Assembly (NCBI GenBank): GCA_963764225.1
Contig: CAVXRL010000004.1
Span: forward strand, 273,909 to 337,908
Reading direction: 5' to 3'
DNA from: an uncultured Actinomycetes bacterium
GTDB lineage: Bacteria > Actinomycetota > Thermoleophilia > UBA2241
Length of the DNA: 64,000 nt
Shown piece by piece: positions 4,668 to 38,658 of this stretch. Under the pieces are notes generated by a model. The model saw only the letters and a program-made list of their open reading frames with translations, searched no databases and was not told the DNA's origin. The position numbers were made by a program, and so were the translations under genes. Every line of letters starts with the position of its first letter. Position 1 is the first letter of the stretch.

Positions 4668-4772
4668 GTGGTCCTCTCCTTCAGCTGGTACGCGCTGGCC
4701 GGCGGTCTGTCTTGTGCTTGAGCCTGAGGGATGCGCAGAATGGCGCGGAGGCGCGGCTCTTCCCGTAGCTCG

Positions 4773-4831
4773 CATTGCGGACGTCTAGGTCACATTGCGG
4801 ACATCCTAAGCCTGCCCTCGGCCTCCGTCAA
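4773..4831 (-). promoter_or_regulatory. Sigma70-type promoter of athL with tandem operator-like repeats
   Basis: Minus strand TTGACG (4831-4826), 17 nt, TAGGAT (4808-4803). GTCCGCAATG is repeated at 4802-4793 and 4782-4773, just downstream of the -10. Confidence 0.65.
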
Positions 4832-10834: not shown

Positions 10835-11017
10835 CTCCGCGCGGCGCTCCCGCCGGCGCCGCGCCGCGCTTCACGCGCCTGCGCTGGCGCCGCGGCTTCA
10901 CGCGCGCCTGCGCCTGGCCGCCCTCGAAGGTCCACCAGCGCCGAAACGTCCACCCGCGACGCCACTCGTCATCCTTCCTCGTCCGACGCGGGTCGCGGTA
11001 GCGTGCTGTCCGCTACC

Positions 11018-11098
11018 TCTGTCCACATGTAGCCGGCGGATACAGTCCCGCGGCGAGACGGCCGCCGGGGCGATCTGTCGACATGTAGCCGATGGATA
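11018..11098 (+). promoter_or_regulatory. Duplicated 25-bp site upstream of the antitoxin gene, likely TA operator
   Basis: TCTGTCCACATGTAGCCGGCGGATA 11018-11042 and TCTGTCGACATGTAGCCGATGGATA 11074-11098 are 22/25 identical with an ACATGT palindromic core. Confidence 0.55.
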
Positions 11099-11122
11099 TC
11101 CGTGAGGAGAGGAGGCAAGTAC

Positions 11123-11395
11123 ATGACCACCAGGACCTCTCGCGGCTGCGCCACCAGAAGGATCCTGCGCTGGGGTTGGGGCCTGGGCGTCAGGATCCCC
11201 GTCCCGCTCGCGCGACAGGTCGGGCTTGAGGAAGGCTCCACCGTCGAGGTCCACATCGAGGACGGCTGTCTCGTGCTCAGGCCGCTTCCGGACGCCCTCA
11301 CTCTCGATCGCATGCTCGCCCGCGTGACGCCGGAGAACCAGCACGCCGGCCTGGAGTGGCGCCCGGCGGACGCCAGCCGGGACTGCGGCAGGTGA
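11123..11395 (+). CDS. mazE: AbrB/MazE family antitoxin
   Basis: RWGWGLGVRIP...VGLEEGSTVEV...LVLRP...LTLDRMLARVTPENQH. GGAGG RBS before ATG 11123. Confidence 0.8.
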   Translation: MTTRTSRGCATRRILRWGWGLGVRIPVPLARQVGLEEGSTVEVHIEDGCLVLRPLPDALTLDRMLARVTPENQHAGLEWRPADASRDCGR

Positions 11396-11763
11396 ACGCG
11401 CGGGCGGCCTGGACCCCGGGATGCGGAGACATCGTCCTCGTCAGGATGTCACCCTGGGGAGGGCGTTCCCGGAGCATGCCGGGCACGTGCCGGACGCGCC
11501 CCGCGTTCGTGCTCTCCCCGGCCGCCTACAGCGCGAAGACCGGCCGCGCCATCGTCTGCCCCATCGCGGACGAGCCGGAGGACGGTCCCTTCGAGGTCAC
11601 GGTCCCGCCTGCTCTGGGCACGGGAGGAGTCATCCTCGCGGACCGCGTCACCAGCATCGACGTGCGCGCCTGCGGAGTGAGGCTGATGTGCCCGGCGACG
11701 AGCGACGCGGTCGCCCTGGTACGCGAGAAGCTCCAGGTCCTGCTCGGCCTCCCCGTCGGCTGA
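11392..11763 (+). CDS. mazF: PemK/MazF family toxin (divergent)
   Basis: GDIVLV...RPAFVLSP...KTG...VCP...PFEV...ILADRVTSID. The GTG start overlaps the mazE TGA. Confidence 0.78.
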   Translation: MNARAAWTPGCGDIVLVRMSPWGGRSRSMPGTCRTRPAFVLSPAAYSAKTGRAIVCPIADEPEDGPFEVTVPPALGTGGVILADRVTSIDVRACGVRLMCPATSDAVALVREKLQVLLGLPVG

Positions 11764-11818
11764 CGACAGCCCGGCGGCGGCAGCAGCTCGAGCGGGGCGT
11801 GAGGCTCTCCGGCAGGCG

Positions 11819-12949
11819 TCAGCGCAGGGTCGTGCCGTTCGCCCTCGGGCGCTGCGCGAGCGGCTCGGCCGGGTGAGGCAAGGTCGCGGCGATCTGACGC
11901 GCCATCACCGGCTGCCACTTGAGACGCGCCGGGGCGAGCAGGTGGAAGAGGTCGGCGAAGTCCTGGTCCACGAGCTTGACCTTGCGCTCGATGTGCACGT
12001 AGGGCACTCCGTAGCGCCGCGCGAGATCCGTCGCGCGCTTGCGGTACGCCGGCACCACGCCGTTCCAGGTGGGTCCGGCCGCCGAGGCGTTGAGCGGCTG
12101 GTCGTAGAGGACCACGTCGAAGCCACGCTCACGCGCGAGCTTCAGGATCTCTTCGAGCATGGCGAAGTTGTAGTCGCCGTACTTGCGGTACAGCGTGACG
12201 TCCTTGGCGAGCACGTAGAGCACGTTGCGGCGCTTGCCGAGTTGCGTGTGCCCTTTGGCTCCCCAGGGGTAGTAGTGCGTGGCGTAGGTGATCCGGGTGC
12301 CCCAGGGCGCGTCGCTGGTCGCGCGTTCGCGCAGGTAGGACCCGACGTAGTCGAAGATGCCCGGGATGGCCCCCGTCCGCGGCGCGGGACGGCCGAAGTA
12401 CTTGGGGCTGAGCTGCTCGAGGCGGCTGCTGCGCACGAGCAGCTCGTGGCCGCCGAGCAGGGACGCGTCGCGTGCGGGCTTGCCGGTCACGCGGATGGGG
12501 GCCAGCCCGATGGCCAGCGTGGCCGGGCCCGCCGGCAGGTTGTCGACGAGTGCCAGCGTCATGCCCATGCTCTCCTGGTGCGCGGCCAGGCTGACGACCC
12601 GGACCGGCTGGCCGGCGTCGCGCGAGATCGCCGCGCCGAGCGACGCCTCGCTGACGAAGCACTCCATGGTGCCGGAGCCGCCGAAGAGGTAGACGGTGCG
12701 GGTCTTCGGCGGGTCCTTCTTCAGCTCCTGGACCTTGACCGAGACGTGCACGTAGTCGTCGTGGGTGATGCGCAGGAGGCGGCCCTCGTCCACAGCGGTG
12801 AGGCCGCCCCGGAACAGCACCCCTTGAAGGAGGAGCAGGGCGAGCACCGTGACGAGGGCCGCCGCGGCCAGCACCAGCGGATGCCGCTGGTGGAAGCCGC
12901 GGCTGAACGAACGCCAGCCGCCCGTGTTCTGGACCTCACGTGGACTCAC
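11819..12949 (-). CDS. Membrane-anchored SGNH/DltD-like acyltransferase, paralog 3
   Basis: N-terminal TM helix, LFGGSG serine motif, C-terminal FADLFHL (DxxH). Confidence 0.6.
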   Translation of the reverse strand: MSPREVQNTGGWRSFSRGFHQRHPLVLAAAALVTVLALLLLQGVLFRGGLTAVDEGRLLRITHDDYVHVSVKVQELKKDPPKTRTVYLFGGSGTMECFVSEASLGAAISRDAGQPVRVVSLAAHQESMGMTLALVDNLPAGPATLAIGLAPIRVTGKPARDASLLGGHELLVRSSRLEQLSPKYFGRPAPRTGAIPGIFDYVGSYLRERATSDAPWGTRITYATHYYPWGAKGHTQLGKRRNVLYVLAKDVTLYRKYGDYNFAMLEEILKLARERGFDVVLYDQPLNASAAGPTWNGVVPAYRKRATDLARRYGVPYVHIERKVKLVDQDFADLFHLLAPARLKWQPVMARQIAATLPHPAEPLAQRPRANGTTLR

Positions 12950-13036
12950 ACTGCTCCTCAGCCGGCTTCTTCATGGTCCCACAGGTAAACGCCGGAGCGC
13001 GCAGTGCGGTTCACGCCGGCGCATGGCGGGCCGCGC

Positions 13037-14284
13037 TCACGGCAGCATGCCGTGGATCCACGCCAGCGGCAGGCGCACGGCCATGTAGAAGATCCTGCCC
13101 GCCTGCGTGATGCTGCCGGTGGAGACGAACGCGTAGCCCATCGCGACGTAGAGGAACGTCACCGGGTAGCCGAGCCACTTCGTGAACTTCTCGTAGCCCG
13201 CCGCCGGCGGCAGGCCCGCCTTCTTCCTCTTCTTCTTGCGGGCCCTCTTCCACCGCTCCCACCTCGCCACGATCACGAGCCCGGTGCCGTGATAGAGGCC
13301 CCACATCGTCCAGTTGAGGTCCACGGCGTGCCACAGGCCCATCACCAGCATGCTCGCGTACAGTCCCAGCCAGGTCTTGCGTGTGAGGCCGAACACCGGG
13401 AAGTACACGTTGTTGCGCACCCAGGTGCTGAGCGAGATGTGCCAGCTGTGCCAGAACTCGCTCAGGTTCTTCTGCCAGAACGGGAAGTGGAAGTTCTCCA
13501 TGATCCGGAACCCGAACAGACGGGAGAAGCCGATGGCGAGATCCGTGTACGCGCTCAGGTCGAAGTACGCGCGCACGAACACGATGATGCAGTAGGCGAC
13601 GGGCCACCACCAGCTGACGTCGCTGCCGTTGAAGTCCGTCTTGCCGACCGTCGTGATGATCTTGCTGAAGAAGATCGAGAAGAGGAAGTCGACGACGAAG
13701 ACCTTCTTGAAGTAGCCCAGCGCGATGCGCCGCAGACCGTAGTAGAACTCCTGCCGGTCGAACCCGATGGTGCGCTTCTCGTAGAAGCCCTGGTACGTCT
13801 CGAGCGGGCCGGCCGGGAACGTGGGGATCCACATGATGAACGCCGCCAGCCGCAACAGGCTGTTCTCCTTGATCACGCCGCGCACGCAGTCGAACACGTA
13901 CTGCAGCATGCGGAACACGAAGTAGCTGATGCCCAGCGGCATGATGAGGTGCGTCACGATGGGGTCGTTCGTGCCCCAGATCGCGCGCGCCCCGGTCTGG
14001 CCGTACTTGCCGACGCCGAGCGTCACCAGGGCGATGATGATGGCGATGAACACCAGCCTGGCGCCGCGCAGTCGCTTGCTCCGGAACGCCTCGACGAGCT
14101 GCCAGGTGACGATCACCAGGCCCACCGCGATGGCCGCGAAGATGGGGTTCAGCACGGCCAGCACGCCCACGCTGACGACGAGCATGAAGAACAGCCGGTA
14201 CGCGTCCTTGCGCAGCAGCAGCCAGAACACCAGCAGCGAGAAGACCACCACCGGGATCAGGTACAGCGTGAAGTAGATCTTCAC
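13037..14284 (-). CDS. MBOAT family O-acyltransferase (DltB/AlgI-like)
   Basis: PLGISYFVF, AGP, DLSAYTDLAIG, ENFHFP, FWHSWHISLSTW, catalytic GLWH. Confidence 0.92.
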   Translation of the reverse strand: MKIYFTLYLIPVVVFSLLVFWLLLRKDAYRLFFMLVVSVGVLAVLNPIFAAIAVGLVIVTWQLVEAFRSKRLRGARLVFIAIIIALVTLGVGKYGQTGARAIWGTNDPIVTHLIMPLGISYFVFRMLQYVFDCVRGVIKENSLLRLAAFIMWIPTFPAGPLETYQGFYEKRTIGFDRQEFYYGLRRIALGYFKKVFVVDFLFSIFFSKIITTVGKTDFNGSDVSWWWPVAYCIIVFVRAYFDLSAYTDLAIGFSRLFGFRIMENFHFPFWQKNLSEFWHSWHISLSTWVRNNVYFPVFGLTRKTWLGLYASMLVMGLWHAVDLNWTMWGLYHGTGLVIVARWERWKRARKKKRKKAGLPPAAGYEKFTKWLGYPVTFLYVAMGYAFVSTGSITQAGRIFYMAVRLPLAWIHGMLP

Positions 14285-15351
14285 CGGCCACTCCCTCCAG
14301 AGTCCGCGGCGTTGAGGAGCTGGGCGAGCTCCTTCGCCAGTGCATGTTGCCAGACGACGCGCCCGGGCCCGATGAGATGAGAGAGGTCCTGGAAGTCACG
14401 GCTGGGGATGTCGACGGTCTTGTTGAGGTCGACGTACGGGTAGCCGTACTTCCCGGCGAGCTTGGTGACGGGGACCTGGTACTGCCGCTGTGATGAGGCG
14501 AAGCTGTCGCCGACGATCTCCTTGTTGAGCGGCAGCTCGAGCAGGACCACGTTGACGCCGCGTTCCCTGGCCTGCGCCAGCAACTCCTCGAGCATCTGCA
14601 GGTTGGCGACGCGGTTCTTCTCGAAGACCGGCTTGCGGCTCGTGTTCCACCTGGTCACGAGCCGTTTCTTCAGGCTGTCGGAGCGCCGCGTCTTCTCGGA
14701 GTACCGGTGCAGCTCGTACCGGGTGCTCGGAGGATCGCCCTCGAGCAGGGATGCGCCGTGCTTGCGCATCCAGTCGGTGATGTACGCCCAGATGCCCGGC
14801 AGGATCGTGTACTGGTACTTCTCGAGACCCCAGCGGGACGAGACGAACTCCCGGACCGCGTCACTGTCCAGCAGCAGCTCTCGACCCTGGGCCTGCTGCG
14901 CATTCTGGTCGCGCGTGGCGGTGAAGCGGCCGAGGTTGACGCCCACGAGCAGCCAGGCCGGCGTGTCGGGAGCGCCCTCGACGACCGAGAGGCTCTCGGC
15001 GAAGTTCTGGTTGATCGAGCCGAGGTCGTAGGCGACGACGTCGGGGCCGCCGGCCCTGCGCACCTCGGCGGCGAGGGAGTCGCCGCCGACGATGCTCTCG
15101 CGCGCGCTCGAGCCGCCGAGCAGGTAGAGGCCCGGCACCGAGGGACGGTCCTGCCGGGCCTTGCCCACCTCCCAGGAGATGTACGTGAACGAGTCCTCGC
15201 CGCTCCGCAGCGCCCGGTCGAGCGGCAGTACGGTCCAGGCGCCGCTCGTGAACAGCCACTGGAACCCGAGCAGCGCCGGTACCAGGCAGAGCGCCGCGGC
15301 GATGAGGACCAACGGATGCCGGTTGCGGAACCCGCGGCGAAAGGAGTCCAT
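14281..15351 (-). CDS. Membrane-anchored SGNH/DltD-like acyltransferase, paralog 2
   Basis: N-terminal TM, LLGGSSARE, GVNLGRF, C-terminal FQDLSHL. Confidence 0.6.
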   Translation of the reverse strand: MDSFRRGFRNRHPLVLIAAALCLVPALLGFQWLFTSGAWTVLPLDRALRSGEDSFTYISWEVGKARQDRPSVPGLYLLGGSSARESIVGGDSLAAEVRRAGGPDVVAYDLGSINQNFAESLSVVEGAPDTPAWLLVGVNLGRFTATRDQNAQQAQGRELLLDSDAVREFVSSRWGLEKYQYTILPGIWAYITDWMRKHGASLLEGDPPSTRYELHRYSEKTRRSDSLKKRLVTRWNTSRKPVFEKNRVANLQMLEELLAQARERGVNVVLLELPLNKEIVGDSFASSQRQYQVPVTKLAGKYGYPYVDLNKTVDIPSRDFQDLSHLIGPGRVVWQHALAKELAQLLNAADSGGSGR

Positions 15352-16415
15352 CAGGGCGCCGTCCGCAGGGTGCCGTCGTTGTAGAGGCCGGCCAGCCGGC
15401 GGGCGAGCTCGGCCTGCCAGACCGCCCGCCCTGCCGGACGCAGGTGCGAGAGGTCGAGGAAGTCCTCGCTGGGGATGGCGACCTGGTCGTTGAAGTCCAG
15501 GTAGGGAACGTCGTACTTCTCGGCGATGGCCCGGGTCGGCGCCCGGTAGGCGGCCATCGCCGCGTCGAACGAGCCGCCGATGACGTCACGGTTCCACGGC
15601 AGCTCGACGATGACCATGTCCAGGCCTCGCCTCTGCCCCTCGGCGATGAGCCCGTCGAGCATCGCCGCGTCGAACTTGTGGACCTTCTTGAACGCCGGGT
15701 AGTACTTGCTGAGCCACTTGCGCACCAGTCGCCGCTTCTCGGCCTCGGGGAGCGTGGCGCGCTTGTCGAAGGCGTGCACCTTGTACGGCTTGGCCTGCTT
15801 GCCCTTGAGCCAGGCGTTCTCCTTCTGCTGCAGGTACGAGGCCAGCGCCGAGAAGATGCCCGGCAGGATGGTGTACGAGTACTTGTGCTCGCCGGACTGC
15901 TTGACGACCCAGCGCCGCAGGGAGTCGCTCTTGAGGAGCAGCTCGCGTCCGATGACCTGGTTGTAGTTGCTCCGGGGGCTGGTGGTGAAGCGGCCGAGGT
16001 TCACGCCGACCAGCACCGTCGTCGGCGTGTCCGGGAGGTTGTCGACGATCGCCCAGCTCTGCGCGTAGCGCTGCATGCGCGAGCTGAGGTTGTAAGCGAC
16101 GATGTCGGGACCGCCGTCGCGGGCGACCTGGCGGGCCAGGGAGGGGCCGCTGACGAGGGCCTCGCGGCCGCTCGACCCGCCGAGCAGCACGGCAAGCGGT
16201 TTGCTCGGCGGGTGCTTCTTGAGGTGGCTGGTCATCCACGAGACGTACATGTAGTCGTCGGTGGAGTTGCGCTCCCAGCGCTGGGCCGCGATCGCGGTCC
16301 AGTCGCCGCTCGTGAACCAGCTCTGAATGCCGAGAAGCGCCGGCACCAGGAGTGCCAGCGCCACGACGAGCACGAGCGGATTCCTGTTGCGCAAGCCCCT
16401 CCTGAAGCTGCTCAC
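15351..16415 (-). CDS. Membrane-anchored SGNH/DltD-like acyltransferase, paralog 1
   Basis: N-terminal TM, LLGGSSGRE, GVNLGRF, C-terminal FLDLSHL. Confidence 0.6.
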   Translation of the reverse strand: MSSFRRGLRNRNPLVLVVALALLVPALLGIQSWFTSGDWTAIAAQRWERNSTDDYMYVSWMTSHLKKHPPSKPLAVLLGGSSGREALVSGPSLARQVARDGGPDIVAYNLSSRMQRYAQSWAIVDNLPDTPTTVLVGVNLGRFTTSPRSNYNQVIGRELLLKSDSLRRWVVKQSGEHKYSYTILPGIFSALASYLQQKENAWLKGKQAKPYKVHAFDKRATLPEAEKRRLVRKWLSKYYPAFKKVHKFDAAMLDGLIAEGQRRGLDMVIVELPWNRDVIGGSFDAAMAAYRAPTRAIAEKYDVPYLDFNDQVAIPSEDFLDLSHLRPAGRAVWQAELARRLAGLYNDGTLRTAP

Positions 16416-17947
16416 CCCAGCTCCTCGGCGAGCAGCTTCCGCAGCTCCGCCCTGATCGCCTTTCCCGACCCCGTGCGTGGGATCTGCCCGACGGCGATCA
16501 CGCGGCTGGGCAGGGACGTGGAGGGCAGCACGCCGCGCAGTTCACGCAGCAGCCTGCTGGCCCTGAAGCCGTCCGGCTCGTTGGGGACCACGAACGCGAC
16601 CGGCACGTGACCGAGGATCTCGTCGGGCGCGGCCACCACGGCCACATCGGCGAACCGGCCGAGACCCTGCAGCGCCTCCTGCACGTGGATGATGCTGACC
16701 TTCTCACCGCCGCGCTTGATGATGTCGTCCTTGCGGCCGGCGATCCACACGGCGCCGGTCTCGTCGACCTTGCCGAAGTCGCCGGTCTTGAGGCCGTGAG
16801 CGGTCAGGGTCTTCGCCGTGATCTCCGGCTCGTCCAGGTAGCCCTGCATGAGCAGCGAGCCGGTGACGTAGAGCTCGCCCTGCTCGCCGGGCGCGGCCTC
16901 AGTGAGGTCGCCGCGCCGGGCGACGACGCGCATGTCGCCGATGGGCCGGCCGACGGAGCCGACTTTGAGGTCGAGCTCGGCCGGCGGCAGCACGCACAGC
17001 CGGCCGCTCACCTCGGTGAGGCCGTACATGTTGAACAGCGCGACGCCCGGGAGCACGGCCTGGAACTTCTCGATCACCGGCAGCGGCAGGTGGTCGCCGC
17101 TGCTCACCCAGAACCGGAACGCGTGCTCGCGCGGCTCCTGCATCGGCTCGACGACGCGCACCAGATGGGCCGGCGCGCCGCCGAAGCCAGTGCAACCCTC
17201 CGCCTCCATCTCGTCCAGCAGCCCCGTCCCGAAGTAGAAGCCGAGCTGCCCGGCGACGCCCCCGCCCGCGGCCATGAGCGTGAGGAAGTGGCAGATGCCG
17301 CTGGTGAAGTACGGCGGCGTGTTGATGAACACGCGGTCGCCGGCCCGCAGGCCGAGCGTCTGAGAGACGTACCCGGCGTTGCTCGAGACGGCCCGCAGCG
17401 TCTGGCGCACGCCCTTGGGCAGCCCCGTGGTGCCCGACGTGAACATGATCATCGCCGTCTCGTCCTCGCGCACGGGCTCGAGCCGGTCCGCCGGAGCGGC
17501 AGCGACGGATCCGCCGCCGGCCGCGCGCAGGCCGTCCACCAGCCCCTCCGCGTCGGCGGTGACGACCAGCCGCGTGGGGCCGTCCGCGGGAGTCGGGCAC
17601 ACCTCGTCGTCCGGCAGCACGATCAGGTCCGGCCGGCACTTGCCCAGCAGCCAGTCGAGGTCGTTCTGCGGCAGGCTCACGTTGAGCGGGACGACGACCT
17701 GGCCGGCCAGCCACGCGCCGAGCATGCAGGCGAAGAACTGGTCGTACTCCTCCAGCACGAACGCGACGCGGGCGCCGCGGCGGCCGGCGGCGGCCAGGAG
17801 GGCCGCCGCGATCCGCGTCGCCCGCGCGTCCAGGTCCGCGTAGGTGTACACCCGGCCGCGCGTGCGCACGAGCGTCTCGTCCGCGCGCTCGACCGCCCAG
17901 CGGCGGAGGCGCGCGACGGCGTCTGTCATCAGTGCTTCGGTGGTCAC
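16412..17947 (-). CDS. Class I adenylate-forming enzyme (AMP-binding ligase)
   Basis: FTSGTTGLPKG, NMYGLTE, KTGDFG, GRKDDIIKRGG, PRTGSGK. Confidence 0.9.
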   Translation of the reverse strand: MTTEALMTDAVARLRRWAVERADETLVRTRGRVYTYADLDARATRIAAALLAAAGRRGARVAFVLEEYDQFFACMLGAWLAGQVVVPLNVSLPQNDLDWLLGKCRPDLIVLPDDEVCPTPADGPTRLVVTADAEGLVDGLRAAGGGSVAAAPADRLEPVREDETAMIMFTSGTTGLPKGVRQTLRAVSSNAGYVSQTLGLRAGDRVFINTPPYFTSGICHFLTLMAAGGGVAGQLGFYFGTGLLDEMEAEGCTGFGGAPAHLVRVVEPMQEPREHAFRFWVSSGDHLPLPVIEKFQAVLPGVALFNMYGLTEVSGRLCVLPPAELDLKVGSVGRPIGDMRVVARRGDLTEAAPGEQGELYVTGSLLMQGYLDEPEITAKTLTAHGLKTGDFGKVDETGAVWIAGRKDDIIKRGGEKVSIIHVQEALQGLGRFADVAVVAAPDEILGHVPVAFVVPNEPDGFRASRLLRELRGVLPSTSLPSRVIAVGQIPRTGSGKAIRAELRKLLAEELG

Positions 17948-17966
17948 GTGCCCCCCGGCGATGCGG

Positions 17967-18167
17967 TCAGAAGCCGACGTAGCGGAACTCGGTGAGCTTG
18001 TTGCCCACGAGCACGGCCACGGTGATGGCGAGGAAGAGCAAGAACCACAAGAACGTCTGCAGGCTCAGGCCGAGGAGGTAGTAGAACCACTGGGTCCTCG
18101 GCCCCACCGGCCGCGGCGCCTCCGCGCCCTCCGCCGGCTGATCGGGCGCGCCTCCCGGCTCAGCCAT
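17967..18167 (-). CDS. Small single-TM protein with DltX-like C-terminal motif FRYVGF
   Basis: 66 aa, one hydrophobic helix, ends F-x-Y-x-x-F. It lies between the carrier protein and the ligase. Confidence 0.7.
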   Translation of the reverse strand: MAEPGGAPDQPAEGAEAPRPVGPRTQWFYYLLGLSLQTFLWFLLFLAITVAVLVGNKLTEFRYVGF

Positions 18168-18408
18168 CGCCCGCCTTCTTGCGCGCGACGTAGGCCAGCA
18201 TGTGATTCACGGTGTCGAGGTTCTCGTAGACGATGTCCATGGGCTTCACCTTGATCTCGAACTCCTCCTCGAGAAACGCGATGAGCGCCGTGAGGTTCAT
18301 GGAGTCGAGCAACTGGTCGCGGAACAGCGAGGTGTCGGGATTGACCTCGTCGTCCTCGAGGTCGGCCTCGTCGCGGATGAACTCGAGGATGGTGTCGGCG
18401 TCGGACAT
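18160..18408 (-). CDS. Acyl/aminoacyl carrier protein (DltC-like)
   Basis: 82 aa, acidic. LLDSM phosphopantetheine site, LEEEFEI, ENLDTV. GGAGG RBS before ATG 18408. Confidence 0.88.
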   Translation of the reverse strand: MSDADTILEFIRDEADLEDDEVNPDTSLFRDQLLDSMNLTALIAFLEEEFEIKVKPMDIVYENLDTVNHMLAYVARKKAGDG

Positions 18409-18437
18409 GTGGCGATCCTCCGGTGGGAGCGGGAGCG

Positions 18438-19121
18438 TCAGGTGCGGGTGCCCTGCGAGTACGAGAAGCGCATGTAGTTCTGGTAGCCGGTGCTCTCGGC
18501 GCCGGCCTTGACGAGGCCGGCGAGCGTGAACACCCGCTGCGCGGTCTGGAAGGCCTGCTCGAGGCCCCACTCGTCACTGAGGACGTGGCCCTTGGCCCCG
18601 GCCCAGGCGTAGGCGCCGAACTGGCAGGTGCCGTCGCCGTTGCCCACCACGAGGCAGCCGTTACGGATGAACGGCAGCCAGGTGGCCAGGATGGCCGTCT
18701 CCGCGCCGCCGGAGCGGCGCCCCGCGGTAGCGAGCACGCCGACCGGCTTGTCGGCGAGCTTGAAGTCCTGGTGGCGCAGCGGGCGCGTGCGCATGATGAA
18801 CTTGCTGAAGAGGTCCGACGGCAGCCCGAAGTACACGGGCGTCGCGACGAGGAGCCCGTCGGCGGCCACCATGGCGTCCAGGATGCTCTGCACATCGTCC
18901 TCGTGCTCACGGACACAGGGGATGAACGTGCCGTCCTTCTTCTTGCCGCACACGGCGCACGCCTTGCACGGCTCGATGTGCTGGTCGCGCAGGTGGATGA
19001 CTTCGTGTTCACACTCGCCGGGGTACACGGCGTCGAGCTTCTCGAACGCGCTCTCGAGCATGATCGCGCTGTTGCTGTTGTCGCGGGGGCTGCAGTTGAG
19101 CCCCAAGAGCCGCACCGTCAT
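18438..19121 (-). CDS. Flavodoxin-like iron-sulfur flavoprotein
   Basis: CSPRDNSNS, PCKACAVC...PC, ATPVYFG, GRRSGGAE. Confidence 0.85.
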   Translation of the reverse strand: MTVRLLGLNCSPRDNSNSAIMLESAFEKLDAVYPGECEHEVIHLRDQHIEPCKACAVCGKKKDGTFIPCVREHEDDVQSILDAMVAADGLLVATPVYFGLPSDLFSKFIMRTRPLRHQDFKLADKPVGVLATAGRRSGGAETAILATWLPFIRNGCLVVGNGDGTCQFGAYAWAGAKGHVLSDEWGLEQAFQTAQRVFTLAGLVKAGAESTGYQNYMRFSYSQGTRT

Positions 19122-19304
19122 GCGTCGTGCTCCTCTCCGTGCACAGCCGCCCGCGAGAGCGGGCGGCAGGGAAACGTCAGACCCGCGGGTCGCGTACGGG
19201 ACGCCATCCTACCAGACGCCGGCCTCGCGCGCGCCCGCGTGAGAGCTCGGGCGCCGCTCGGACGCGCCTGCGACGGGTGCGTTCACAGCAGGGAGCAGGA
19301 GGAG

Positions 19305-19392
19305 TGGTGCCGGAGGTGGGACTCGAACCCACACGCCCTTTCGGGGCACCCGATTTTGAGTCGAGCGCGTCTACCAGTTCCGCCACACCGGC
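19305..19392 (-). tRNA. tRNA-Leu(CAA)
   Basis: GCCGGTGTGGCGGAACTGGTAGACGCG-CTCGA-CTCAAAA-TCGGG, long variable arm, GTTCGAGTCCCAC...CCGGCACCA. Confidence 0.95.
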
Positions 19393-19677
19393 ACCGGTGC
19401 ATGCAGGGAAGCTCCCCGGCAAGCAGAGCGGCCGCTTGCGAACAGACCGCGGATCTTGCTCCGCTTTCGCCGTGGGGCCGCCACTCGCACATTCTGACGC
19501 ATTCCGGCTGCCTTGTGCATCTTCTGCTCCCGGCGCCCTCGCCTGCCGCCCGCTCCCACAGGACGTTACGTTCCGTCGCACGTCCCCCGGACCGGCGGCA
19601 ATAAGAAGACCAGAGGGAACGGCGGGGCCGGCAGAGGGTCCTCTGGGCGGGGCCCGCAGAGTAAAGGAGAGCGCACG

Positions 19678-20073
19678 ATGTCAAATGACTACGACTGGTA
19701 CTCCAGCGAGGCTCTGGAGAAGCAGGGCGTCGATGGGAGCACGCGTCCGCGTCCGGAACAGACACCCGCGTACATGCCTTCCATGTACGACTACGGGCTC
19801 AAGCACGTCATCGCCATCAACAGCGAGTACGGCGGGTGGGACACCTGGCTCAAGGTGTTCGGCTCAGAAGATGCGGCCCTGACCAAGCTGACCGATGCAG
19901 TCACGGACATCTACCGCAGTCTCGACGAGGCCACGGTCGCGGAGCCCGATCTCATGCCGCATGCGTCTGCGATCATCGAACACGCGTTGAGCGTCGTCGA
20001 ATACGAGAACCGTGACGCGATGTATGCCGAGCTGCGGGCGATCGAGAAGTCGCACGGGACGTATCGAGGCTAG
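19678..20073 (+). CDS. Hypothetical protein (131 aa)
   Basis: AAGGAG RBS, ATG 19678, protein-like composition. No family recognised. Confidence 0.65.
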   Translation: MSNDYDWYSSEALEKQGVDGSTRPRPEQTPAYMPSMYDYGLKHVIAINSEYGGWDTWLKVFGSEDAALTKLTDAVTDIYRSLDEATVAEPDLMPHASAIIEHALSVVEYENRDAMYAELRAIEKSHGTYRG

Positions 20074-20145
20074 TCCCCGCTCCGCCGACCGCCGCCGCTC
20101 ATCTTCCCGGCGCGCCGCCCCCGAGGCGGCGCGCCGGTCGCCCGA

Positions 20146-20850
20146 TCAGTACTGCGACGCGAACGTGGTGGTCCACATCTGCGGGCCCATGCCCTTGTGG
20201 ATGGCGTAGGCGGTCGCGAAGATCTGCGAGCTGCCGTCGTAGATGCTGTCGCTCCTCCATGGGTTCCAGCTGGCGGACCAGCTCCCGGTCCAGTACTGGA
20301 ACAGGCCCTTGAAGGCGCTGCCGGAGCCCGCGAACCGCTGCCCGCCGGACTCGCGCATCATCATCCGGTACATGCCTTGGGAGCTGACGTGGTACCTGGC
20401 CGCGGCGACCTCGATGATCTTCATCCACTGGTGCTGCTTCTCCCAGCGCACCAGGTTCTGCTCGAGCCGGTACTGCCGGGCGAGCCTGCTGACCCGCTGC
20501 CTCCACACGCGCACGGCCTTACGGGCCCTGACGACCTTCGCACGGAGCTCGGCGACGGTCGGGACGGCGACGGTCGCCGCGCTGGGCGAGGGTGTGGGTG
20601 TCGGCGTCACGGAGGGATCTCCAGACTCTGTGGTGACGATCGCCAGCCCGGTCTGCACGGCCTGGGCGGCGGCGAGGGCGGCCCGGACGGACCTCAAGCG
20701 GTCTCTGGACTGCCGCAGCGCGACTCTGGCGCCGCGCAACTTGCTCTTGGTGGTGGCGGCCTCAGCCTTCTGGGGGAGGGCTACTGCGGCCAGGGCGGTG
20801 GCGACGATGAGGATCATGACGATCGCGATCCAGCTCTTGCATCGACTCAC
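20146..20850 (-). CDS. Secreted protein with coiled coil and C-terminal lytic transglycosylase/Rpf-like domain
   Basis: Signal peptide (AEA), PT-rich linker, MMRESGG...GLFQY...W...QIFATA lysozyme-fold motif. Confidence 0.7.
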   Translation of the reverse strand: MSRCKSWIAIVMILIVATALAAVALPQKAEAATTKSKLRGARVALRQSRDRLRSVRAALAAAQAVQTGLAIVTTESGDPSVTPTPTPSPSAATVAVPTVAELRAKVVRARKAVRVWRQRVSRLARQYRLEQNLVRWEKQHQWMKIIEVAAARYHVSSQGMYRMMMRESGGQRFAGSGSAFKGLFQYWTGSWSASWNPWRSDSIYDGSSQIFATAYAIHKGMGPQMWTTTFASQY

Positions 20851-21396: not shown

Positions 21397-22014
21397 TCAC
21401 GGGGACGGGCTGAGCATCTCCGCCTCGACGATCCATCCGGCGATGTGGCCGGCGCTGCGGACGAGCTGGAACCCGGCCTCGGTCGCCGTCCGCACCGTGT
21501 CGCGGTCGAGGCGACAGCCCGCCGCCACGGCGGACCAGGCCGGGGCGGCGGCGGATTGCAGGGCCCGCCCCGGCTCCCATGCGAGGTGGACGTGCTCGAG
21601 CAGCAGGAGCGGGCTGCCGGGGACGAGGACCCGGCGGAGCTCGGCGAGCGCCGCCGCCGGGTCGCCCACCGTGCAGAGCGCGAACGCGCTGACGGCCGCG
21701 TCGAAGCTCGCGTCGGCGAACGGAAGCGCTTCTGCGCGGCTGCCGACGACGCGCACCCGGGCGGCGGCGCGCGCCGCGCGCGCGGCCAGGCGGGCGCGCA
21801 TACCGTCGTCCGGCTCCACCGCCGTGACCTCGGTGCCGGGCGCGTACCAGCGCAGCTGCGCGCCCGTGCCCGACCCGATCTCGAGCACCCGTCCGCGTGC
21901 CCGCGCGCCGACGCGCCGTCGCCAGGCGCCGACGGCGGCTCGTTCGAACGGCCACATCACCGCGTCGTACACGGCGGCGTGACCTCCGGGAGAGGTTGAG
22001 AAGCGTGCGTCCAT
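21397..22014 (-). CDS. Class I SAM-dependent methyltransferase
   Basis: VLEIGSGTG, AEALPFADASFD, LCTV, LLEHV. Confidence 0.88.
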   Translation of the reverse strand: MDARFSTSPGGHAAVYDAVMWPFERAAVGAWRRRVGARARGRVLEIGSGTGAQLRWYAPGTEVTAVEPDDGMRARLAARAARAAARVRVVGSRAEALPFADASFDAAVSAFALCTVGDPAAALAELRRVLVPGSPLLLLEHVHLAWEPGRALQSAAAPAWSAVAAGCRLDRDTVRTATEAGFQLVRSAGHIAGWIVEAEMLSPSP

Positions 22015-22090
22015 ACCAGAGACTTACTCGGTCACCACGTCCCCGGGTTGATGCCCGCTCGGGCGGCGCCGCACGCATCGGGGGGGATGG

Positions 22091-22537
22091 ATGGGTCTGT
22101 TCGACTTCGTCAAGTACGACAGGGACGCGACGGGCGCGGAGGTGGACGAAGCCACGCGGTCGGAGCTCCGCCGTCTGGCCAATCTCTTCCTCCTCTCGTC
22201 GGTCACGCTCATCGTACTGCTGCTCGAGGTCTTCGCCCGCGCCCTCGGCGTGAGCTTCATCCCCCAGCCGGTGTACGGCGTCGCCGGCCTCGTCTTCCTG
22301 GTCGGCTGGGCGGCGACGTTCGTCTACGGTCTGTACGTCACGTTCCGAGCCGCTCGCTGGGGCTGGTTCGTGCTCTGCGTCATCCCCGTCACCTGCGTGC
22401 CGGCGAGCGTGGCCTACGCCTGGATCCGGCGCGGCGAGATCGAGCGCGAAGTGCTCGGCGAGGACGGCGGCAGGAGGTCAGGCCGGACGACCGCCGCGCA
22501 GGCGCGGCAGCGCCGCGGCGGCAGGAACAAGCGCTGA
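22091..22537 (+). CDS. Hypothetical membrane protein
   Basis: Three hydrophobic segments and GC-third-position codon pattern. Confidence 0.65.
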   Translation: MGLFDFVKYDRDATGAEVDEATRSELRRLANLFLLSSVTLIVLLLEVFARALGVSFIPQPVYGVAGLVFLVGWAATFVYGLYVTFRAARWGWFVLCVIPVTCVPASVAYAWIRRGEIEREVLGEDGGRRSGRTTAAQARQRRGGRNKR

Positions 22538-23544
22538 CCGACGCCTCCGCGCCTCGCCGCCGCCACCCCTGGCGCACGGCGATCATCTTCATGGCCGTGA
22601 TCGTGGCGCTGTTCCTCGTCGTCCCGCGCCTCGCGGGGCAGCGCCACGCACTCGAACTGGTCGGTGAGGCCTCGCCCGCATGGCTGGCCGCGGCGGTGGC
22701 CGTCGAGTGCGTCTCCATCCTTTTCTACTCGCTGCTCTTCCGCCGCCTCCTCGACCTGCTTCGCTACCCGCTCACGCTCGGACTGGCGCTGCGCATCAAC
22801 CTCGCGGGCCTCGCCGCCGCGCACCTGTTCTCGGCCGGCGGCCTGGGCGGCGCGGCGGTCACCTATCGCGCGCTGCAGAAGCGAGGCATGCCCCACGCCA
22901 TGGTGCTCATCGCCGTCATCTTCCAGAACGCCTTCGCCTACTTCTTCCTGTTCGCGCTGTTCGCCGCGAGCCTGCTGGTCCTCATCGCGCGCGGCCGCGG
23001 CGGAGACGCCGCGACGGTCGTCTCGACCCTCCTCGTGGCGCTCGTCCTCGCGCTCACCGGCTACGGGTTCTGGCTCCTCAACCACCCCACCTCGCTGCGC
23101 CGGCGCTCCCGGCGGGTCATCGCCTGGCTGGAGCGGCGCACGCGGCGGGTCCGCGTGGACCGCGAGAAGCTCGAGGAGTACCTCGACGGCGTCATCGACG
23201 GCTGGCGCAGACTGCGGCGTGACGGCTGGGGACACCTCCGCACGGTGGGGCACGCAGCGGGCTACTGGGGTTTCGACATCGTCTGCCTGCTCTTCGTGAT
23301 GCTGGCGTTCCACCAGTACCTCGCCATCGACCTGGTCGTCATCGCCTACGCGGTCGCCTACGTGGTCGGCACCTTCTCCCCCACGCCCAGCGGCCTGGGC
23401 GCCGTGGAAGGCGTGCTCATCGCGCTGCTCGTCGGCTTCGGGCTCGCGTCGGGCCCCGCGGTCGCCGTGGTGCTCGTGTACCGCCTCATCTTCTTCTGGC
23501 TCCCGATCCCCGTCGGGCTGGGCACGTACCTCACCGTGCGCTGA
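22534..23544 (+). CDS. Lysylphosphatidylglycerol synthase TM / flippase-like domain protein (UPF0104), paralog 1; start uncertain (CTG 22534 or ATG 22591)
   Basis: Multi-TM with SAGGLGG, PTPSGLGAVEG, VLVYRLIFFWLP. Confidence 0.8.
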   Translation: MTDASAPRRRHPWRTAIIFMAVIVALFLVVPRLAGQRHALELVGEASPAWLAAAVAVECVSILFYSLLFRRLLDLLRYPLTLGLALRINLAGLAAAHLFSAGGLGGAAVTYRALQKRGMPHAMVLIAVIFQNAFAYFFLFALFAASLLVLIARGRGGDAATVVSTLLVALVLALTGYGFWLLNHPTSLRRRSRRVIAWLERRTRRVRVDREKLEEYLDGVIDGWRRLRRDGWGHLRTVGHAAGYWGFDIVCLLFVMLAFHQYLAIDLVVIAYAVAYVVGTFSPTPSGLGAVEGVLIALLVGFGLASGPAVAVVLVYRLIFFWLPIPVGLGTYLTVR

Positions 23545-23640: not shown

Positions 23641-24708
23641 ATCAGGAAGACGCTCATCCGCATCATCGTCTTCGCCGTCATCGTGCTGGCGCTCTACCTG
23701 CTGCTGCCCAAGCTGGTGGACACCCAGCAGACGCTCCAGTACATCTCCCACGCGAGCTACTTCCTGCTCGGCGTGGCGGTCGCGTCCGAGATCGCGGCGC
23801 TGGCCGGGTACGCCAACCTCTTCCGCTACATCCTGCGCGTGCTGGACATCCGCATGCGCCTGGGCGAGGTGTGGGCGGTCACGCTCAGCAGCCTCGCCGT
23901 GAGCCACATCCTCTCCGCCGGCGGCGTCGGCGGCTGGGTGGTCAGCTACAACGCGCTGATGAAGCACAAGGTGCCGCACGGCATCATCTTCGTCGCCATC
24001 GCGGCCCAGCAGTTCTTCAACTACGTCGTGCTGTGGTTCTTCTTCGCCCTGGCGATCGTCTACCTCATCGTCACGCGCGGGGGCGACTCCATCTTCGGCT
24101 ACCTGGTCGGGATCGTGCTCATCGTCCTCCTCCTCTGGCTCACGTTGTACGGTGTCTACCTCTACAACCACCCCACGCGGCTGCGCCTGCGCGCGCGCCA
24201 GCTGGCACGACTCGTGAACCGCGTGATGCGGCGCACCGTGGTCAAGGAGCACCACATCGACGGCTGGATCGACAACCTGCTGATCGGCATGCGGCGCATG
24301 ACCGGCCACCGCGGGGCGATCCGCAACACCCTGGGCCTGGCCTGCGTGTTCTGGTTCTTCGACATGCTCGCCCTGTGGTGCACGTTCGCCGCGTTCGGGG
24401 AGAGGATCACCCTCGGTCACCTGCTCGTCGGCTACGTGATCGCCTACTCCATCGGCACGCTGGCGCCCACGCCGGGGGGCCTGGGCGCCGTCGAGGGCAT
24501 CATGATCGCGCTCTACGTGAGCTTCGGCGTGCCGTCCGCGGTGGCGGTGGCCGTGGTGCTCGTCTACCGCATCATCAACTTCTGGCTGCCGATCCCGCCG
24601 GGGTTCGTCGCCTACGCCGTCGTGCGGCCGGGTCGCAAGCCGATCGCCGAAGGCGAGGTCGAGGAGGCGGCCGTCGAGGCGCCGGCCGAGCTGGGCGGGC
24701 GGAGGTAG
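23641..24708 (+). CDS. Lysylphosphatidylglycerol synthase TM / flippase-like domain protein, paralog 2; start uncertain (ATC 23641 or GTG 23683)
   Basis: SAGGVGG, PTPGGLGAVEG, VLVYRIINFWLP. Confidence 0.8.
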   Translation: MRKTLIRIIVFAVIVLALYLLLPKLVDTQQTLQYISHASYFLLGVAVASEIAALAGYANLFRYILRVLDIRMRLGEVWAVTLSSLAVSHILSAGGVGGWVVSYNALMKHKVPHGIIFVAIAAQQFFNYVVLWFFFALAIVYLIVTRGGDSIFGYLVGIVLIVLLLWLTLYGVYLYNHPTRLRLRARQLARLVNRVMRRTVVKEHHIDGWIDNLLIGMRRMTGHRGAIRNTLGLACVFWFFDMLALWCTFAAFGERITLGHLLVGYVIAYSIGTLAPTPGGLGAVEGIMIALYVSFGVPSAVAVAVVLVYRIINFWLPIPPGFVAYAVVRPGRKPIAEGEVEEAAVEAPAELGGRR

Positions 24709-24736: not shown

Positions 24737-26389
24737 TCAGTCGCGCGGGCTCAGGCGGTAGAGACGCAGCGCCGGCCCGCGCTCGCCGGGGCCGGGCCGG
24801 AACACCTCGACCAGCTCCGCCTCCTCGTCGAGCCGCCGGTAGAAGCCGGCGAGCTCGGGGTAGTCGGCGGCGGCTGCGAGCACGCGGTCGCGCACGCTGG
24901 AGCTCGTCACCACGTACTGCACGCCCTGCTCACGCAGGCGCGCGAGGTCGTGCGTGCGCTCCGGCGTGCCGGGCACCGGCAGCTTGAGACGCACCAGACG
25001 GTAGGCGACGGGGTCGAGCCCCCGCTGCCGGTAGTGCGGAAGCTGGTCCTCGCGCACCAGCGGCGGGCCGTAGTTCTCGACGGCGATGAGCGCTCCCTCC
25101 GGGATGTTCCGCTGGATCCACTCGCGCGCGATCTCTCTCGTGTCGGCGCCGCTCAGGTCGCGGTCGAACGCCAGCGACGAGGTGAGCGCCGGCACGAACG
25201 CCGCCGCCAGCAGCACCGCGGCCGCGGGCAGGGCGAAGCGGCGTGCCCGCGGCCACAGCAGCGCAAGCTCCACGACCATCCGCACCGCGAGCAGGAGGAG
25301 CAGCGGCACGATCACCAGCAGGTAGCGGTCGGCGAGCTCCTTCCAGGTCCCGATGTAGACGAAGTACACGACGGCGTAGGGCGCGAGCATCAGGTCGAGG
25401 CGCGTGCGGCGCCGGAACGCCCAGACGAGCCCTGCGGCGGCCAGGACAGCCGCGACGACGCCCACCGCGCCGGTCAGGTTGGGCGTCACGTTGTACCAGA
25501 ACCCGTTGCCGGCGTGCTCGAACCCGAGCCAGCCGCGGTCCATGATCTGGCTCTGGCGGCGGAAGTCGCGCAGGAAGCGCGGCGCGTCGAGCACGACGAA
25601 CGGCGAGGCGAGGACGAACGCCGCGAGCATGGGCGCGTAGACCCGCAGCACGAGCACGCGCGCCCACAGGAGCGCGGCGCGGCCGCCGGCGGCCGCGCGC
25701 CGCGCCACCTCCTCCCTGCAGGCGTAGACCGCCGCCACCGTCGCCGGCAGCACCAGCAGCCCCAGGTTGTACTTGGTGGACGTGGCGAGGCCGGCGGCGA
25801 GGGCGCCGAGGACCAGCCAGCGGGCGGCGTGGGCGCGACCTGCGGCAGCCTGCTGCAGCAGCGCCAGCGCCAGCAGCGAGAGAGCGACGGCGGTCACGTC
25901 GGTCACCGCCATGTGGGAGTAGGCGACGTGGAGCGGCGCCGCCGCCAGGAAGAGCGCCGCGAGCAGGCCGGCCGCCGCCCCGAAGGCATCCCGGCCGAGC
26001 CGCCAGACCAGCCACACGGAGGCGGTCCCGGCGGCCACCGAGAGCAGCCGGGCCAGCAGGAAGTACGGCGTGGGGTCCACGACGAACGACGTCAGCGACA
26101 ACAGGTCGCCCTTGCCGAGCAGCCACCAGAAGGGCGCGGCGAGCACGTACACTGCTCCGGCCAGGTAGAAGTAGAGCGACGGATAGAAGAAGAACTGCGG
26201 GTTCAGATGCCCCCGCGCGGCGGCCACCGCCTTGGGCACCACCGTGCTCTCGTCGGCGTTCACGAAGCTGAAGGGCAGGCCGTAGCCGACTCCCTTGAGA
26301 CGCAGGGCGAGCGCCAGGAGGAGGATGAGGGCGAGGAGCGCGCCGGTGAGCCCGACGCGGCGCCGGCGGCCGCTGGCCTCCGCGCTCAC
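24737..26389 (-). CDS. GT-C glycosyltransferase (family 39 / ArnT-PMT-like)
   Basis: NADE loop, FFYPSL, ARLLS, TKYN, DRYLL, many TMs. The GTG start overlaps the hisI stop. Confidence 0.8.
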
Positions 26390-26748
26390 GCTCCCGAAGG
26401 CCGCGTGGCGGCCCCGCCGTTCGCATCGTCGCGGAAGCAGCTCACGCCGCCCGTGTGGCAGGCCGGCCCGGCGGGCTCCACGGTCATGAGGACGGTGTCG
26501 TGGTCGCAGTCCAGGCTCAGGGAGACCACGCGCTGCACGTTGCCGCTGGTGCCGCCCTTGTGCCACAGCTCGTGCCGGCTGCGGCTCCAGAACGTGGACT
26601 CGCCCGAGACCAGCGTGGCCCGCAGCGCCTCCTCGCTCGCGTAGGCGACCATGAGCACCTCGCCGCCGTCCGCGGCCTGGACCACGCAGGGCACCAGGCC
26701 GTCGGCGTTGTAGCGCACGAGCGCGAGGAACGCCTCGTGGTCCATCAT
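26386..26748 (-). CDS. hisI: Phosphoribosyl-AMP cyclohydrolase
   Basis: FWSRSR.ELWHKG.TSGN.Q, DCDHD, ACHTG..SCF. Confidence 0.93.
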
Positions 26749-36802: not shown

Positions 36803-36804
36803 GT

Positions 36805-38068: not shown

Positions 38069-38658
38069 CTGCGGGGCGACGTCGGCACCCAGAAGTACAG
38101 CTCGTCGTCGTACTCCCCGTCGAGCACACCGCCGTTCTTCTCGATCACCCGCCGTGAAGCGATGTTGCCGGGATCGCAGTCGATGAGGGCGCACTCGACT
38201 CCGAGCTCCGCCGCCAGCGGCAACGCCGCGGCCAGCATGGCGGTCGCGTGCCCCCGGCCCCGCGCACTCGGGCGGACCTCGTAGCCGATGTGGCCGCCCT
38301 CGTAGAGCAGATGCAGCGTCAGACGATGACGGATGCTGACCCGCCCCAGGTACTCGTCGCCCTGAGCCCACCACAGTGTCGTCTGCGGGACGTAGCCGCC
38401 AGGCTGATACGGCGGCTCCTTGCCTCGCAGCGACCACACGTAGCGGGCCGTCGCCCCCGGCGACCTCACGTCATCCCGCAGCGCGGCCACATACCTCCCG
38501 AACTCGTCCGGCGCCCGGAGGAGCGTCTCGTCGAGTTCGGGGTGGCGGCCCTCCCGGTGGGCCTCGGCCAAGGCCGCGAGAAACGACTCCCGGAAGCGCG
38601 TCGCCGGAGCGGCCAGACGTGGCGACCCCATGGCCCGAGGCTTCTCCGGCCCCGCCAT
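38065..38658 (-). CDS. GNAT family N-acetyltransferase, paralog A
   Basis: YLGRVSIRHRL, GGHIGYEVRPSARGRGHAT, NIASRRVIEKNGG. Confidence 0.85.
   Translation of the reverse strand: MAGPEKPRAMGSPRLAAPATRFRESFLAALAEAHREGRHPELDETLLRAPDEFGRYVAALRDDVRSPGATARYVWSLRGKEPPYQPGGYVPQTTLWWAQGDEYLGRVSIRHRLTLHLLYEGGHIGYEVRPSARGRGHATAMLAAALPLAAELGVECALIDCDPGNIASRRVIEKNGGVLDGEYDDELYFWVPTSPRR

Follow-up and report, generated by a model that had tools for sequence, protein, structure and literature searches.

The locus described here raises the question of whether an acyl relay of the Dlt type can serve an acid other than D-alanine in a bacterium outside the Firmicutes. It occupies positions 11819-19121 on the minus strand of a 64,000-nucleotide stretch of DNA (the window), which lies on contig 4 of a metagenome-assembled genome (MAG; 3.09 Mb in 9 contigs, 90.8% complete) of an uncultured soil actinobacterium of the Thermoleophilia (Actinomycetota), and it comprises eight tightly packed and co-oriented open reading frames (ORFs). 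These probably encode a carrier-dependent relay of the Dlt type, built from an MBOAT, a microprotein and SGNH proteins, which would handle an acid that is not D-alanine and which appears to be vertically conserved in a single genus of the Thermoleophilia. An earlier reading made from the letters of this DNA alone (the sequence-only reading) had described eight co-oriented genes in this order, with overlapping stop and start codons and in a non-Firmicute host, and both the coordinates and the Thermoleophilia assignment of the MAG agree with it. Its further statement that the architecture had not been characterised stands in so far as no description was found in the literature searched, an earlier mention being possible in the mechanistic work on DltX and in supplements, which lay outside that search.

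In Firmicutes the proteins DltA, DltC, DltB, DltX and DltD are responsible for the D-alanylation of teichoic acids, and the tyrosine-shuttle mechanism of bacterial MBOAT-SGNH acylation has been worked out on Dlt and on PatAB. DltX is a membrane microprotein with an invariant tyrosine in its C-terminal FXYXXF 'acyl shuttle' motif; this tyrosine accepts D-alanine from DltB and passes it on to the DltD catalytic serine (PMC12148441). MBOAT pathways other than Dlt are said in the same text to lack both a carrier and a DltX-like microprotein (PMC12148441), and the set in the window would be an exception to that rule, with a split relay, a FadD-like ligase, a flavoprotein and several acceptor-side transferases. 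If this is true, carrier-dependent envelope acylation would not be limited to D-alanine, and an abundant, uncultured soil and sediment group would bear an unknown acyl decoration on its surface. The set would also offer a natural system for acyl and acceptor specificity, as close relatives differ in the number of their SGNH paralogs, which ranges from two to five, and it bears on the evolutionary relation of split and fused MBOAT designs.

The eight-gene set and its conservation

The set begins with a putative Fe-S flavoprotein of the FMN_red family (18438-19121, 227 amino acids (aa); Pfam FMN_red, 2.4e-22), the gene of which lies 29 nucleotides (nt) upstream of that for the acyl carrier protein (18160-18408, 82 aa; Pfam PP-binding, 9.4e-11). 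The ATG of the carrier gene (18408-18406) is preceded by GAGGA, and the protein presents its Ser36 in the stretch LLDSMNLT. By 8 nt (ATGGCTGA, 18160-18167) the carrier gene overlaps with the gene for a DltX-like membrane micropeptide (17967-18167, 66 aa), whose C-terminus F61-R-Y63-V-G-F66 is directly followed by the stop codon. An adenylating ligase of the ANL superfamily comes next (16412-17947, 511 aa; AMP-binding, PF00501, 5.7e-62; AMP-binding_C, PF13193, 1.6e-12) and shares 4 nt (16412-16415) with the first of three SGNH paralogs, D1 (15351-16415, 354 aa), which has an N-terminal membrane helix and the residues Ser81, Gly137, Asn275, Asp321 and His324. D2 (14281-15351, 356 aa, 46% identical to D1) overlaps with D1 by 1 nt (15351) and by 4 nt (14281-14284) with the gene for a short MBOAT (13037-14284, 415 aa; Pfam MBOAT, 3.1e-15), and D3 (11819-12949, 376 aa, 33% identical to D1) closes the set. 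The identities that the sequence-only reading had given to the carrier, the adenylation enzyme, the MBOAT and the Fe-S flavoprotein are borne out by these Pfam matches and, for the last, by a four-cysteine motif.

It is proposed that the ligase adenylates an acid lacking an alpha-amino group and attaches it to the phosphopantetheine of Ser36 of the carrier, where the Fe-S flavoprotein may, speculatively, reduce or oxidise the bound acyl group. On the cytoplasmic side the short MBOAT, with His319 and His282, would accept the thioester and, in the manner of DltB and DltX, move the acyl group to Tyr63 of the extracytoplasmic FRYVGF tail of the micropeptide. Ser81 of the SGNH transferases, which are anchored in the membrane, would next receive the group from this acyl-tyrosine ester. 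These transferases, two to five per set and from two ancient orthologue groups, would hand it on to at least one envelope acceptor and perhaps to several.

A profile built from the SGNH paralogs retrieved 66 loci, 57 of which were mapped (L009-L065), and the relatives of the window are MAGs that bear the label Thermoleophilia or Actinomycetota. Carrier, micropeptide, ligase, at least one SGNH protein and MBOAT stand on one strand in 47 of the 57 mapped loci, an arrangement that is therefore far beyond chance, and most of the non-core loci are cut by contig ends. Of these 47 core loci, 43 hold the flavoprotein as well. The commonest layout (18 loci) is that of the window, Isf-ACP-X-ligase-D-D-MBOAT-D, in which Isf is the flavoprotein, ACP the carrier, X the micropeptide and D an SGNH paralog, followed by Isf-ACP-X-ligase-D-MBOAT-D (10 loci). 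Within the genus of the window, 19 of 24 genomes hold a full-length MBOAT match of at least 65% identity and one more holds it split in two frames, and no match of that grade and length was found in 16 genomes from other families of the class. When an even sample of 401 Actinomycetota genomes was scanned with the SGNH profile, strong matches were confined to the window's genus (2/2 genomes), with weak ones (1e-7 to 1e-13) in 5 of the 399 others. Flanking genes, for example those for an M42 peptidase and LPG_synthase_TM proteins, are common to many related loci. Since both the set and its flanking genes are kept in related loci, the pattern fits vertical inheritance of the eight genes within one uncultured genus of the Thermoleophilia.

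The 6.9-kb contig of one Thermoleophilia MAG (L050) holds two tandem sets, the second of which is made up of flavoprotein, carrier, micropeptide and SGNH genes, with no ligase between the last two.

The micropeptide ends in LTEFRYVGF and a stop codon in all 49 of the loci that hold it, and its alignment consists of a variable N-terminal third followed by a conserved single hydrophobic helix and tail. Among the last 40 codons, 13 keep one amino acid by way of several synonymous codons, the invariant Arg62 is encoded by all six arginine codons across the loci, and pairwise comparisons count 10512 synonymous against 6496 non-synonymous codon differences. Because synonymous codons turn over beneath an invariant peptide, the codon pattern shows that the ORF is under purifying selection and speaks for its translation. 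It matches no Pfam family (Pfam-A scan, E <= 0.1, with no match to the DltX family) and no NCBIfam family, and its DltX-type character, that of a membrane microprotein with a C-terminal FxYxxF, is found in motif and architecture, not in a family model. A canonical actinomycete dlt locus likewise has a 53-aa ORF (DltX), which ends in EFVYEQF. Judged by these features the micropeptide is genuine and DltX-like. Metagenome gene calls hold 525 unnamed relatives, none with a Pfam domain.

Two metagenome calls, P0388 and P0389 (330 and 465 aa), join micropeptide sequence to an AMP-binding domain and are either gene-call read-through or true micropeptide-ligase fusions. A search for longer forms returned no fusion of micropeptide and MBOAT, an empty result that is itself weak evidence.

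The order kept in 47 of 57 loci with its overlapping stop and start codons, together with the synonymous turnover beneath the micropeptide, makes it exceedingly improbable that these genes are neighbours by chance or through shared regulation, with a micropeptide that is not translated and a flavoprotein that is unrelated. Such a view could draw on the promoter search, in which none was called at the locus, on a terminator count at the level of shuffled sequence and on a flavoprotein role that has no structural support, but it is also opposed by the duplication of the flavoprotein along with the set and by the MBOATs of the genome, among which that of the window is the only one to miss the FxYxxF motif.

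The ligase, the carrier and the acyl group

Whether the relay handles D-alanine can be asked first of the ligase. In addition to its two Pfam domains it has the motifs TSGTTG and YGLTE of ANL enzymes and a catalytic Lys496 in GSGK496. It is the genome's best match to the DltA equivalog model TIGR01734, with 105.3 bits where the cut-off, exceeded in the control genomes of B. subtilis and L. lactis, is 559.85. The best NCBIfam model is PRK06187, long-chain-fatty-acid--CoA ligase (265.9 bits, below cut-off), and among structures in the PDB FadD5 (1.7e-46) and FadD13 (1.8e-43) come first, followed by adenylation domains of LgrA and by feruloyl-CoA synthetase, with DltA at 1.5e-27. In amino-acid adenylation domains the aspartate of the A4 'FD' motif holds the alpha-amino group of the substrate. 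The window ligase has a threonine at this position, Thr215 (F214-T215 in PPYFT215SG), which aligns with the FD-motif aspartate of LgrA domains 1 and 2 and of three actinomycete DltAs, and PPYFTSGICHF is conserved in 49 of 50 orthologues. As a threonine stands in place of the amino-binding aspartate, the enzyme bears little resemblance to a D-alanine ligase and we infer that its substrate is a carboxylic acid without an alpha-amino group. The sequence-only reading had suggested a parallel pathway for a different acyl group, and this suggestion gains support from the TIGR01734 score, the FadD kinship and Thr215.

The carrier keeps its serine motif (DSM) in 49 of 49 loci. It scores 34.5 bits on the DltC model NF003464 (cut-off 68), 26.8 bits on TIGR01688 (cut-off 52.35) and 37.2 bits on acyl carrier protein models, every such model and every DltC model of NCBIfam being below its cut-off.

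The Dlt pathway also occurs in Dickeya and Pectobacterium, according to one report (PMC5541007), and canonical DltB is above cut-off in 6 of the 401 sampled Actinomycetota genomes, a tally that takes in five genomes flagged as unpublished, none of them analysed. Three canonical actinomycete dlt loci were fetched (G273, G121 and G400), and the flavoprotein is in none of them. G273 has the order dltA-B-C-D-X, and G121 has dltA-B-C-D with a frame ending in FxYxxF just downstream. In G400 a second DltD-like gene (L098, 6502-7782; 426 aa) stands between dltA and dltB, besides the one after dltC. Measured against these three loci, the window ligase is 24-26% identical to DltA (2e-26 to 8e-23), the MBOAT 26-27% to DltB (3.5e-24 to 1.2e-20) and the carrier 29-36% to DltC (1.2e-07 to 2.3e-06), and the SGNH paralogs have no significant BLAST match to their DltD proteins.

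These comparisons bear on the view that the window encodes a true D-alanylation or aminoacylation system in which DltA, DltB and DltD have drifted past the family cut-offs. The set does have the same five functional parts as dlt, its carrier scores DltC models (34.5 bits) about as well as acyl carrier protein models (37.2), canonical dlt occurs in the same phylum, and DltD chains are the ten best Foldseek matches of the D1 model described below. The view is nevertheless very unlikely in light of the distance between 105.3 and 559.85 bits, the threonine in place of aspartate and FadD enzymes as the closest solved relatives, and because canonical sets of the same phylum (24-33% identity) run in the order A-B-C-D-X and have no flavoprotein. 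A grouping of the window genes with canonical dlt is further refuted by the MBOAT, which scores 161.7 bits on the DltB model against a cut-off of 375, and by a genome in which Pfam DltD finds no match.

Split and fused MBOATs and the SGNH paralogs

The window MBOAT aligns with the solved DltB structure 6bug over residues 9-386 (9.9e-34), with the WHxSLS and GxWH motifs in register, and its His282 and His319 are invariant in 19 of 19 orthologues. On the DltB equivalog model TIGR04091 it scores 161.7-161.9 bits and is outscored by the other three MBOATs of the genome (168.4-174.8 bits). The latter are fused forms of 480-676 aa that end in FLYFKF, FLYFKF and FVYVQF, two of them adjoining genes for DUF459 SGNH proteins, whereas the F.Y..F motif is absent from the 415-aa sequence of the window MBOAT. 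A C-terminal FxYxxF is present in 11 of 11 long MBOATs, as against none of 5 canonical DltB proteins and none of 19 window-type MBOATs. MBOAT pathways other than Dlt are described as having no microprotein and as carrying the motif fused on two extra C-terminal helices (PMC12148441), and the split-versus-fused pattern found here is the dichotomy described in that text for Dlt and PatA.

The two FLYFKF-ending MBOATs form tandem pairs with DUF459 SGNH proteins on contig 6 (locus L081, 6712-12481), and the third (676 aa, FVYVQF) is encoded some 40 kb ahead of the window on contig 4 (L082). Eight weak loci from Lachnospiraceae/Clostridia (L067-L074), seven of them with tblastn matches to the MBOAT, were considered as split systems and rejected; in L067 and L072, the two whose ORFs were read, the MBOATs are long fused forms ending in F.Y..F, with an SGNH-like tblastn match just downstream (ORF 9221-10342 in L067).

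A tree of the MBOATs contains three well-supported clades, namely the window type, the fused long forms and canonical DltB. Since the tree is unrooted the sister pairing of these clades is undecidable from it, and the window type may either share its descent with dlt or have split independently from a fused MBOAT. A structure prediction of the MBOAT with residues 24-66 of the micropeptide reached an interface score (ipSAE) of 0.51 against 0.00 for the best control, with contact agreement between runs of at least 94% and a predicted local distance difference test (pLDDT) value of the partner of at least 79. The mark applied to ipSAE is reached by 58 of 80 solved complexes and by 2 of 110 mismatched pairs, and passing scores of 0.60 or less comprise 7 of the 80 solved complexes and both passing mismatches. 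The sequence-only reading had pointed to a complex of MBOAT, peptide and SGNH protein as a check, and it is to the MBOAT-micropeptide pair that this model lends weak support.

Taken part by part, the set resembles Dlt in its adenylating ligase, its small carrier and its short MBOAT without a fused tail motif, in a separate single-helix microprotein ending in EFxYxxF, in an N-terminally anchored extracytoplasmic SGNH protein with serine, aspartate and histidine, and in its tight gene packing. It differs in that no window protein reaches a canonical Dlt family cut-off, that the ligase is FadD-like with threonine for the amino-binding aspartate, and that the MBOAT is no closer to DltB than to the fused MBOATs. 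Window-type sets also hold two to five SGNH paralogs where Dlt has one, together with a constant Fe-S flavoprotein and another gene order, and no TagB/F-type polymerase was found in the window host. Systems of the PatA/PatB (peptidoglycan O-acetylation) or AlgI type share the combination of an MBOAT with an SGNH partner and the FxYxxF tyrosine shuttle motif; long forms of this kind share 31-32% identity with the window MBOAT, and PatB resembles D1 structurally. These systems use an acyl-CoA donor, have neither carrier nor ligase and bear the motif on C-terminal helices of the MBOAT (PMC12148441). In the window set, unlike these, a 66-aa peptide of its own bears the motif, and the neighbouring genes include those for a ligase and a carrier.

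The three SGNH paralogs match Lipase_GDSL_2 below cut-off (0.0012, 0.01 and 0.0056). A structure model was made for D1 with AF2 from a 31-sequence alignment (pLDDT 88.6; predicted TM score, pTM, 0.88), and D2 and D3 are tied to it by their 46% and 33% identity and by shared catalytic residues. The model has an N-terminal helix (13-35) followed by an alpha/beta core with a large helical insertion. In Foldseek its ten best PDB matches are all DltD chains (E 1e-05 to 1.6e-04, TM 0.41-0.47) and generic GDSL esterases rank after them. VIA-align places 1z8h on top (Z 15.5, root-mean-square deviation 3.1 over 178 aligned residues), with TesA at Z 15.4 and PatB among the matches at Z 14.2 and 13.4. 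The SGNH fold of the D1 model is secure, in agreement with the sequence-only reading, which had named all three proteins as SGNH paralogs; a special likeness to DltD is suggested by Foldseek alone. Neither this look at the fold nor the comparison with canonical dlt, the two checks that could have gone against the sequence-only reading on its own terms, contradicted it.

Two deep groups are seen in a tree of 113 paralogs, an 'upstream' group, composed of 52 D2-type and 23 D1-type members, and a 'downstream' group of 36 D3 members (support 1.0). D1-type proteins are a later duplication inside the upstream group, the clade that also contains D2. All 113 paralogs have Ser81, Gly137, Asp321 and His324, and 110 of them have Asn275; with the catalytic residues thus retained, all copies look catalytically able. 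The number of paralogs per set, two to five, varies between close relatives, one of which (G381) has one upstream-type and four downstream-type copies. When look-alikes of the paralogs were sought with a language model, they fell into unnamed clusters with minor shares of DUF1574, LB_356 or DltD.

Several observations weigh against a Dlt-type relay for a non-amino acid. The relay is known here from genes, conservation, folds and motifs alone, and its chemistry is read from these. The SGNH paralogs are not demonstrably kin of DltD, the sequence evidence being thin: Pfam DltD (PF04914) has no match in the genome at E <= 1; 31 members of the SGNH family include 30 matches to Lipase_GDSL_2, 7 to DUF1574 and 1 to DltD (0.0023); hhalign with four DltD-like proteins from the canonical actinomycete dlt loci gives a probability of 68.8% over 101 C-terminal columns; and DltD is not among the best 50 rows of VIA-align, which are generic SGNH hydrolases. 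In BLAST comparisons the fused long forms (31-32% identity, 1e-41) outrank canonical DltB (26%, 1e-24) as relatives of the window MBOAT, so that the kinship with Dlt may be an analogy or reflect an old split. The score of the predicted MBOAT-micropeptide complex amounts to weak support, and its pass may reflect likeness to known Dlt complexes. Threonine in place of aspartate is compatible with an unusual amino or hydroxy acid as substrate. The AF2 model of the flavoprotein (18 close orthologues) has a pLDDT of 48.2 and gives its role no structural support. Finally, no member of the TagB/F glycerophosphotransferase family was found in the genome (90.8% complete), and the classical Dlt acceptor may therefore be missing from the host.

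The flavoprotein, the acceptor and the neighbourhood

The flavoprotein contains an Isf-like motif, C52-x2-C55-x2-C58-x10-C69, that is kept in 44 of 45 orthologues and that, together with its domain, marks it as a putative binder of an Fe-S cluster and FMN. No iron-sulfur flavoprotein and no FLR-type enzyme is known to us to act together with a carrier or an MBOAT. Among solved structures the flavone ene-reductase FLR (7d38) comes closest, with a weak match (2.4e-07) over residues 4-114, and an atlas look-up returned generic FMN_red clusters only. Iron-sulfur flavoproteins and FLR share with it the FMN_red domain and a compact CxxCxxC...C after the first strand-helix unit (PMC7862272), but the similarity is weak and partial. 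Where one MAG or contig holds two sets, the flavoprotein is present in both (L018 and L065, L041 and L051, and the tandem L050). Because it accompanies the set in the core loci and in these doubled sets, it appears to be functionally coupled to it, and perhaps, as a speculation, it tailors the acyl group by a redox reaction.

A more far-reaching reading, tentative and rather doubtful, would place a split MBOAT, a tyrosine-shuttle microprotein and a carrier outside D-alanylation altogether, maybe after a fused MBOAT had split independently of dlt. The exported acyl group would then be a non-amino one tailored by redox chemistry, with the flavoprotein acting on the acyl-carrier, and two to five SGNH proteins would spread it over several acceptors in a Gram-positive lineage in which TagB/F was not found.

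As to the acceptor, three LCP-family ligases are encoded in the genome, and wall-linked glycopolymers are thus probably made. Upstream of the set lie genes for a methyltransferase (21397-22014, minus strand), two LPG_synthase_TM flippase-like proteins (22048-23544 and 23683-24708, plus strand) and a PMT_2 (ArnT/PMT-like) glycosyltransferase (24737-26566, minus strand). These methyltransferase, LPG_synthase_TM and PMT_2 neighbours, 2-7 kb away, are common to 20-28 related loci. An orphan fourth SGNH paralog (1.3e-92 to the profile) is found on contig 7 (L080, 5215-10167), between a methyltransferase gene and an overlapping LPG_synthase_TM gene. The repeated company of methyltransferase and LPG_synthase_TM genes is a lead, no more, to a glycolipid or a lipid-linked glycan as acceptor.

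Eukaryotic MBOATs acylate proteins and lipids, and the relay could likewise be real and yet act on a membrane lipid or glycolipid, a secreted protein or a small molecule in place of a surface polymer. That no TagB/F-type polymerase was found, that the two LPG_synthase_TM genes, PMT_2 and the methyltransferase lie so near, and that the orphan SGNH paralog has the same kind of company would all suit such an acceptor. It is unlikely, though by no means negligible, since the LCP-family ligases make wall-linked glycopolymers probable, the LPG_synthase_TM and PMT_2 neighbours are linked to the set by synteny only, and the bacterial MBOAT-SGNH pairs that have been described act on polymers (PMC12148441).

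One soil metatranscriptome library contains contigs that are 90-96% alike over D3, the MBOAT, D1 and the ligase, as well as a 349-nt contig across the junction of carrier and flavoprotein genes (18289-18637, 13 differences). These contigs come from relatives of the window host and may include DNA carry-over. A tRNA-Leu(CAA) is encoded just upstream of the eight genes (19305-19392), and a search of 11000-20500 with Rfam gave no riboswitch and no family besides this tRNA.

Directly downstream of the set (11102-11763) an ORF for a MazE-like antitoxin (PF04014, 2.4e-08) overlaps with a 135-aa ORF without family match, and the two may form a toxin-antitoxin pair, which is present in just one or two related loci. 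Elsewhere in the window, a molybdopterin oxidoreductase (2067-4775, minus strand) has a first domain that is pyrogallol-hydroxytransferase-like (PF21423, 2.3e-29). A single 884-aa frame (35783-38437, minus strand) combines a Radical_SAM domain (150-320) with the C-terminal domain of HrcA (647-866), with no stop codon between these two parts, the genes for which are usually separate.

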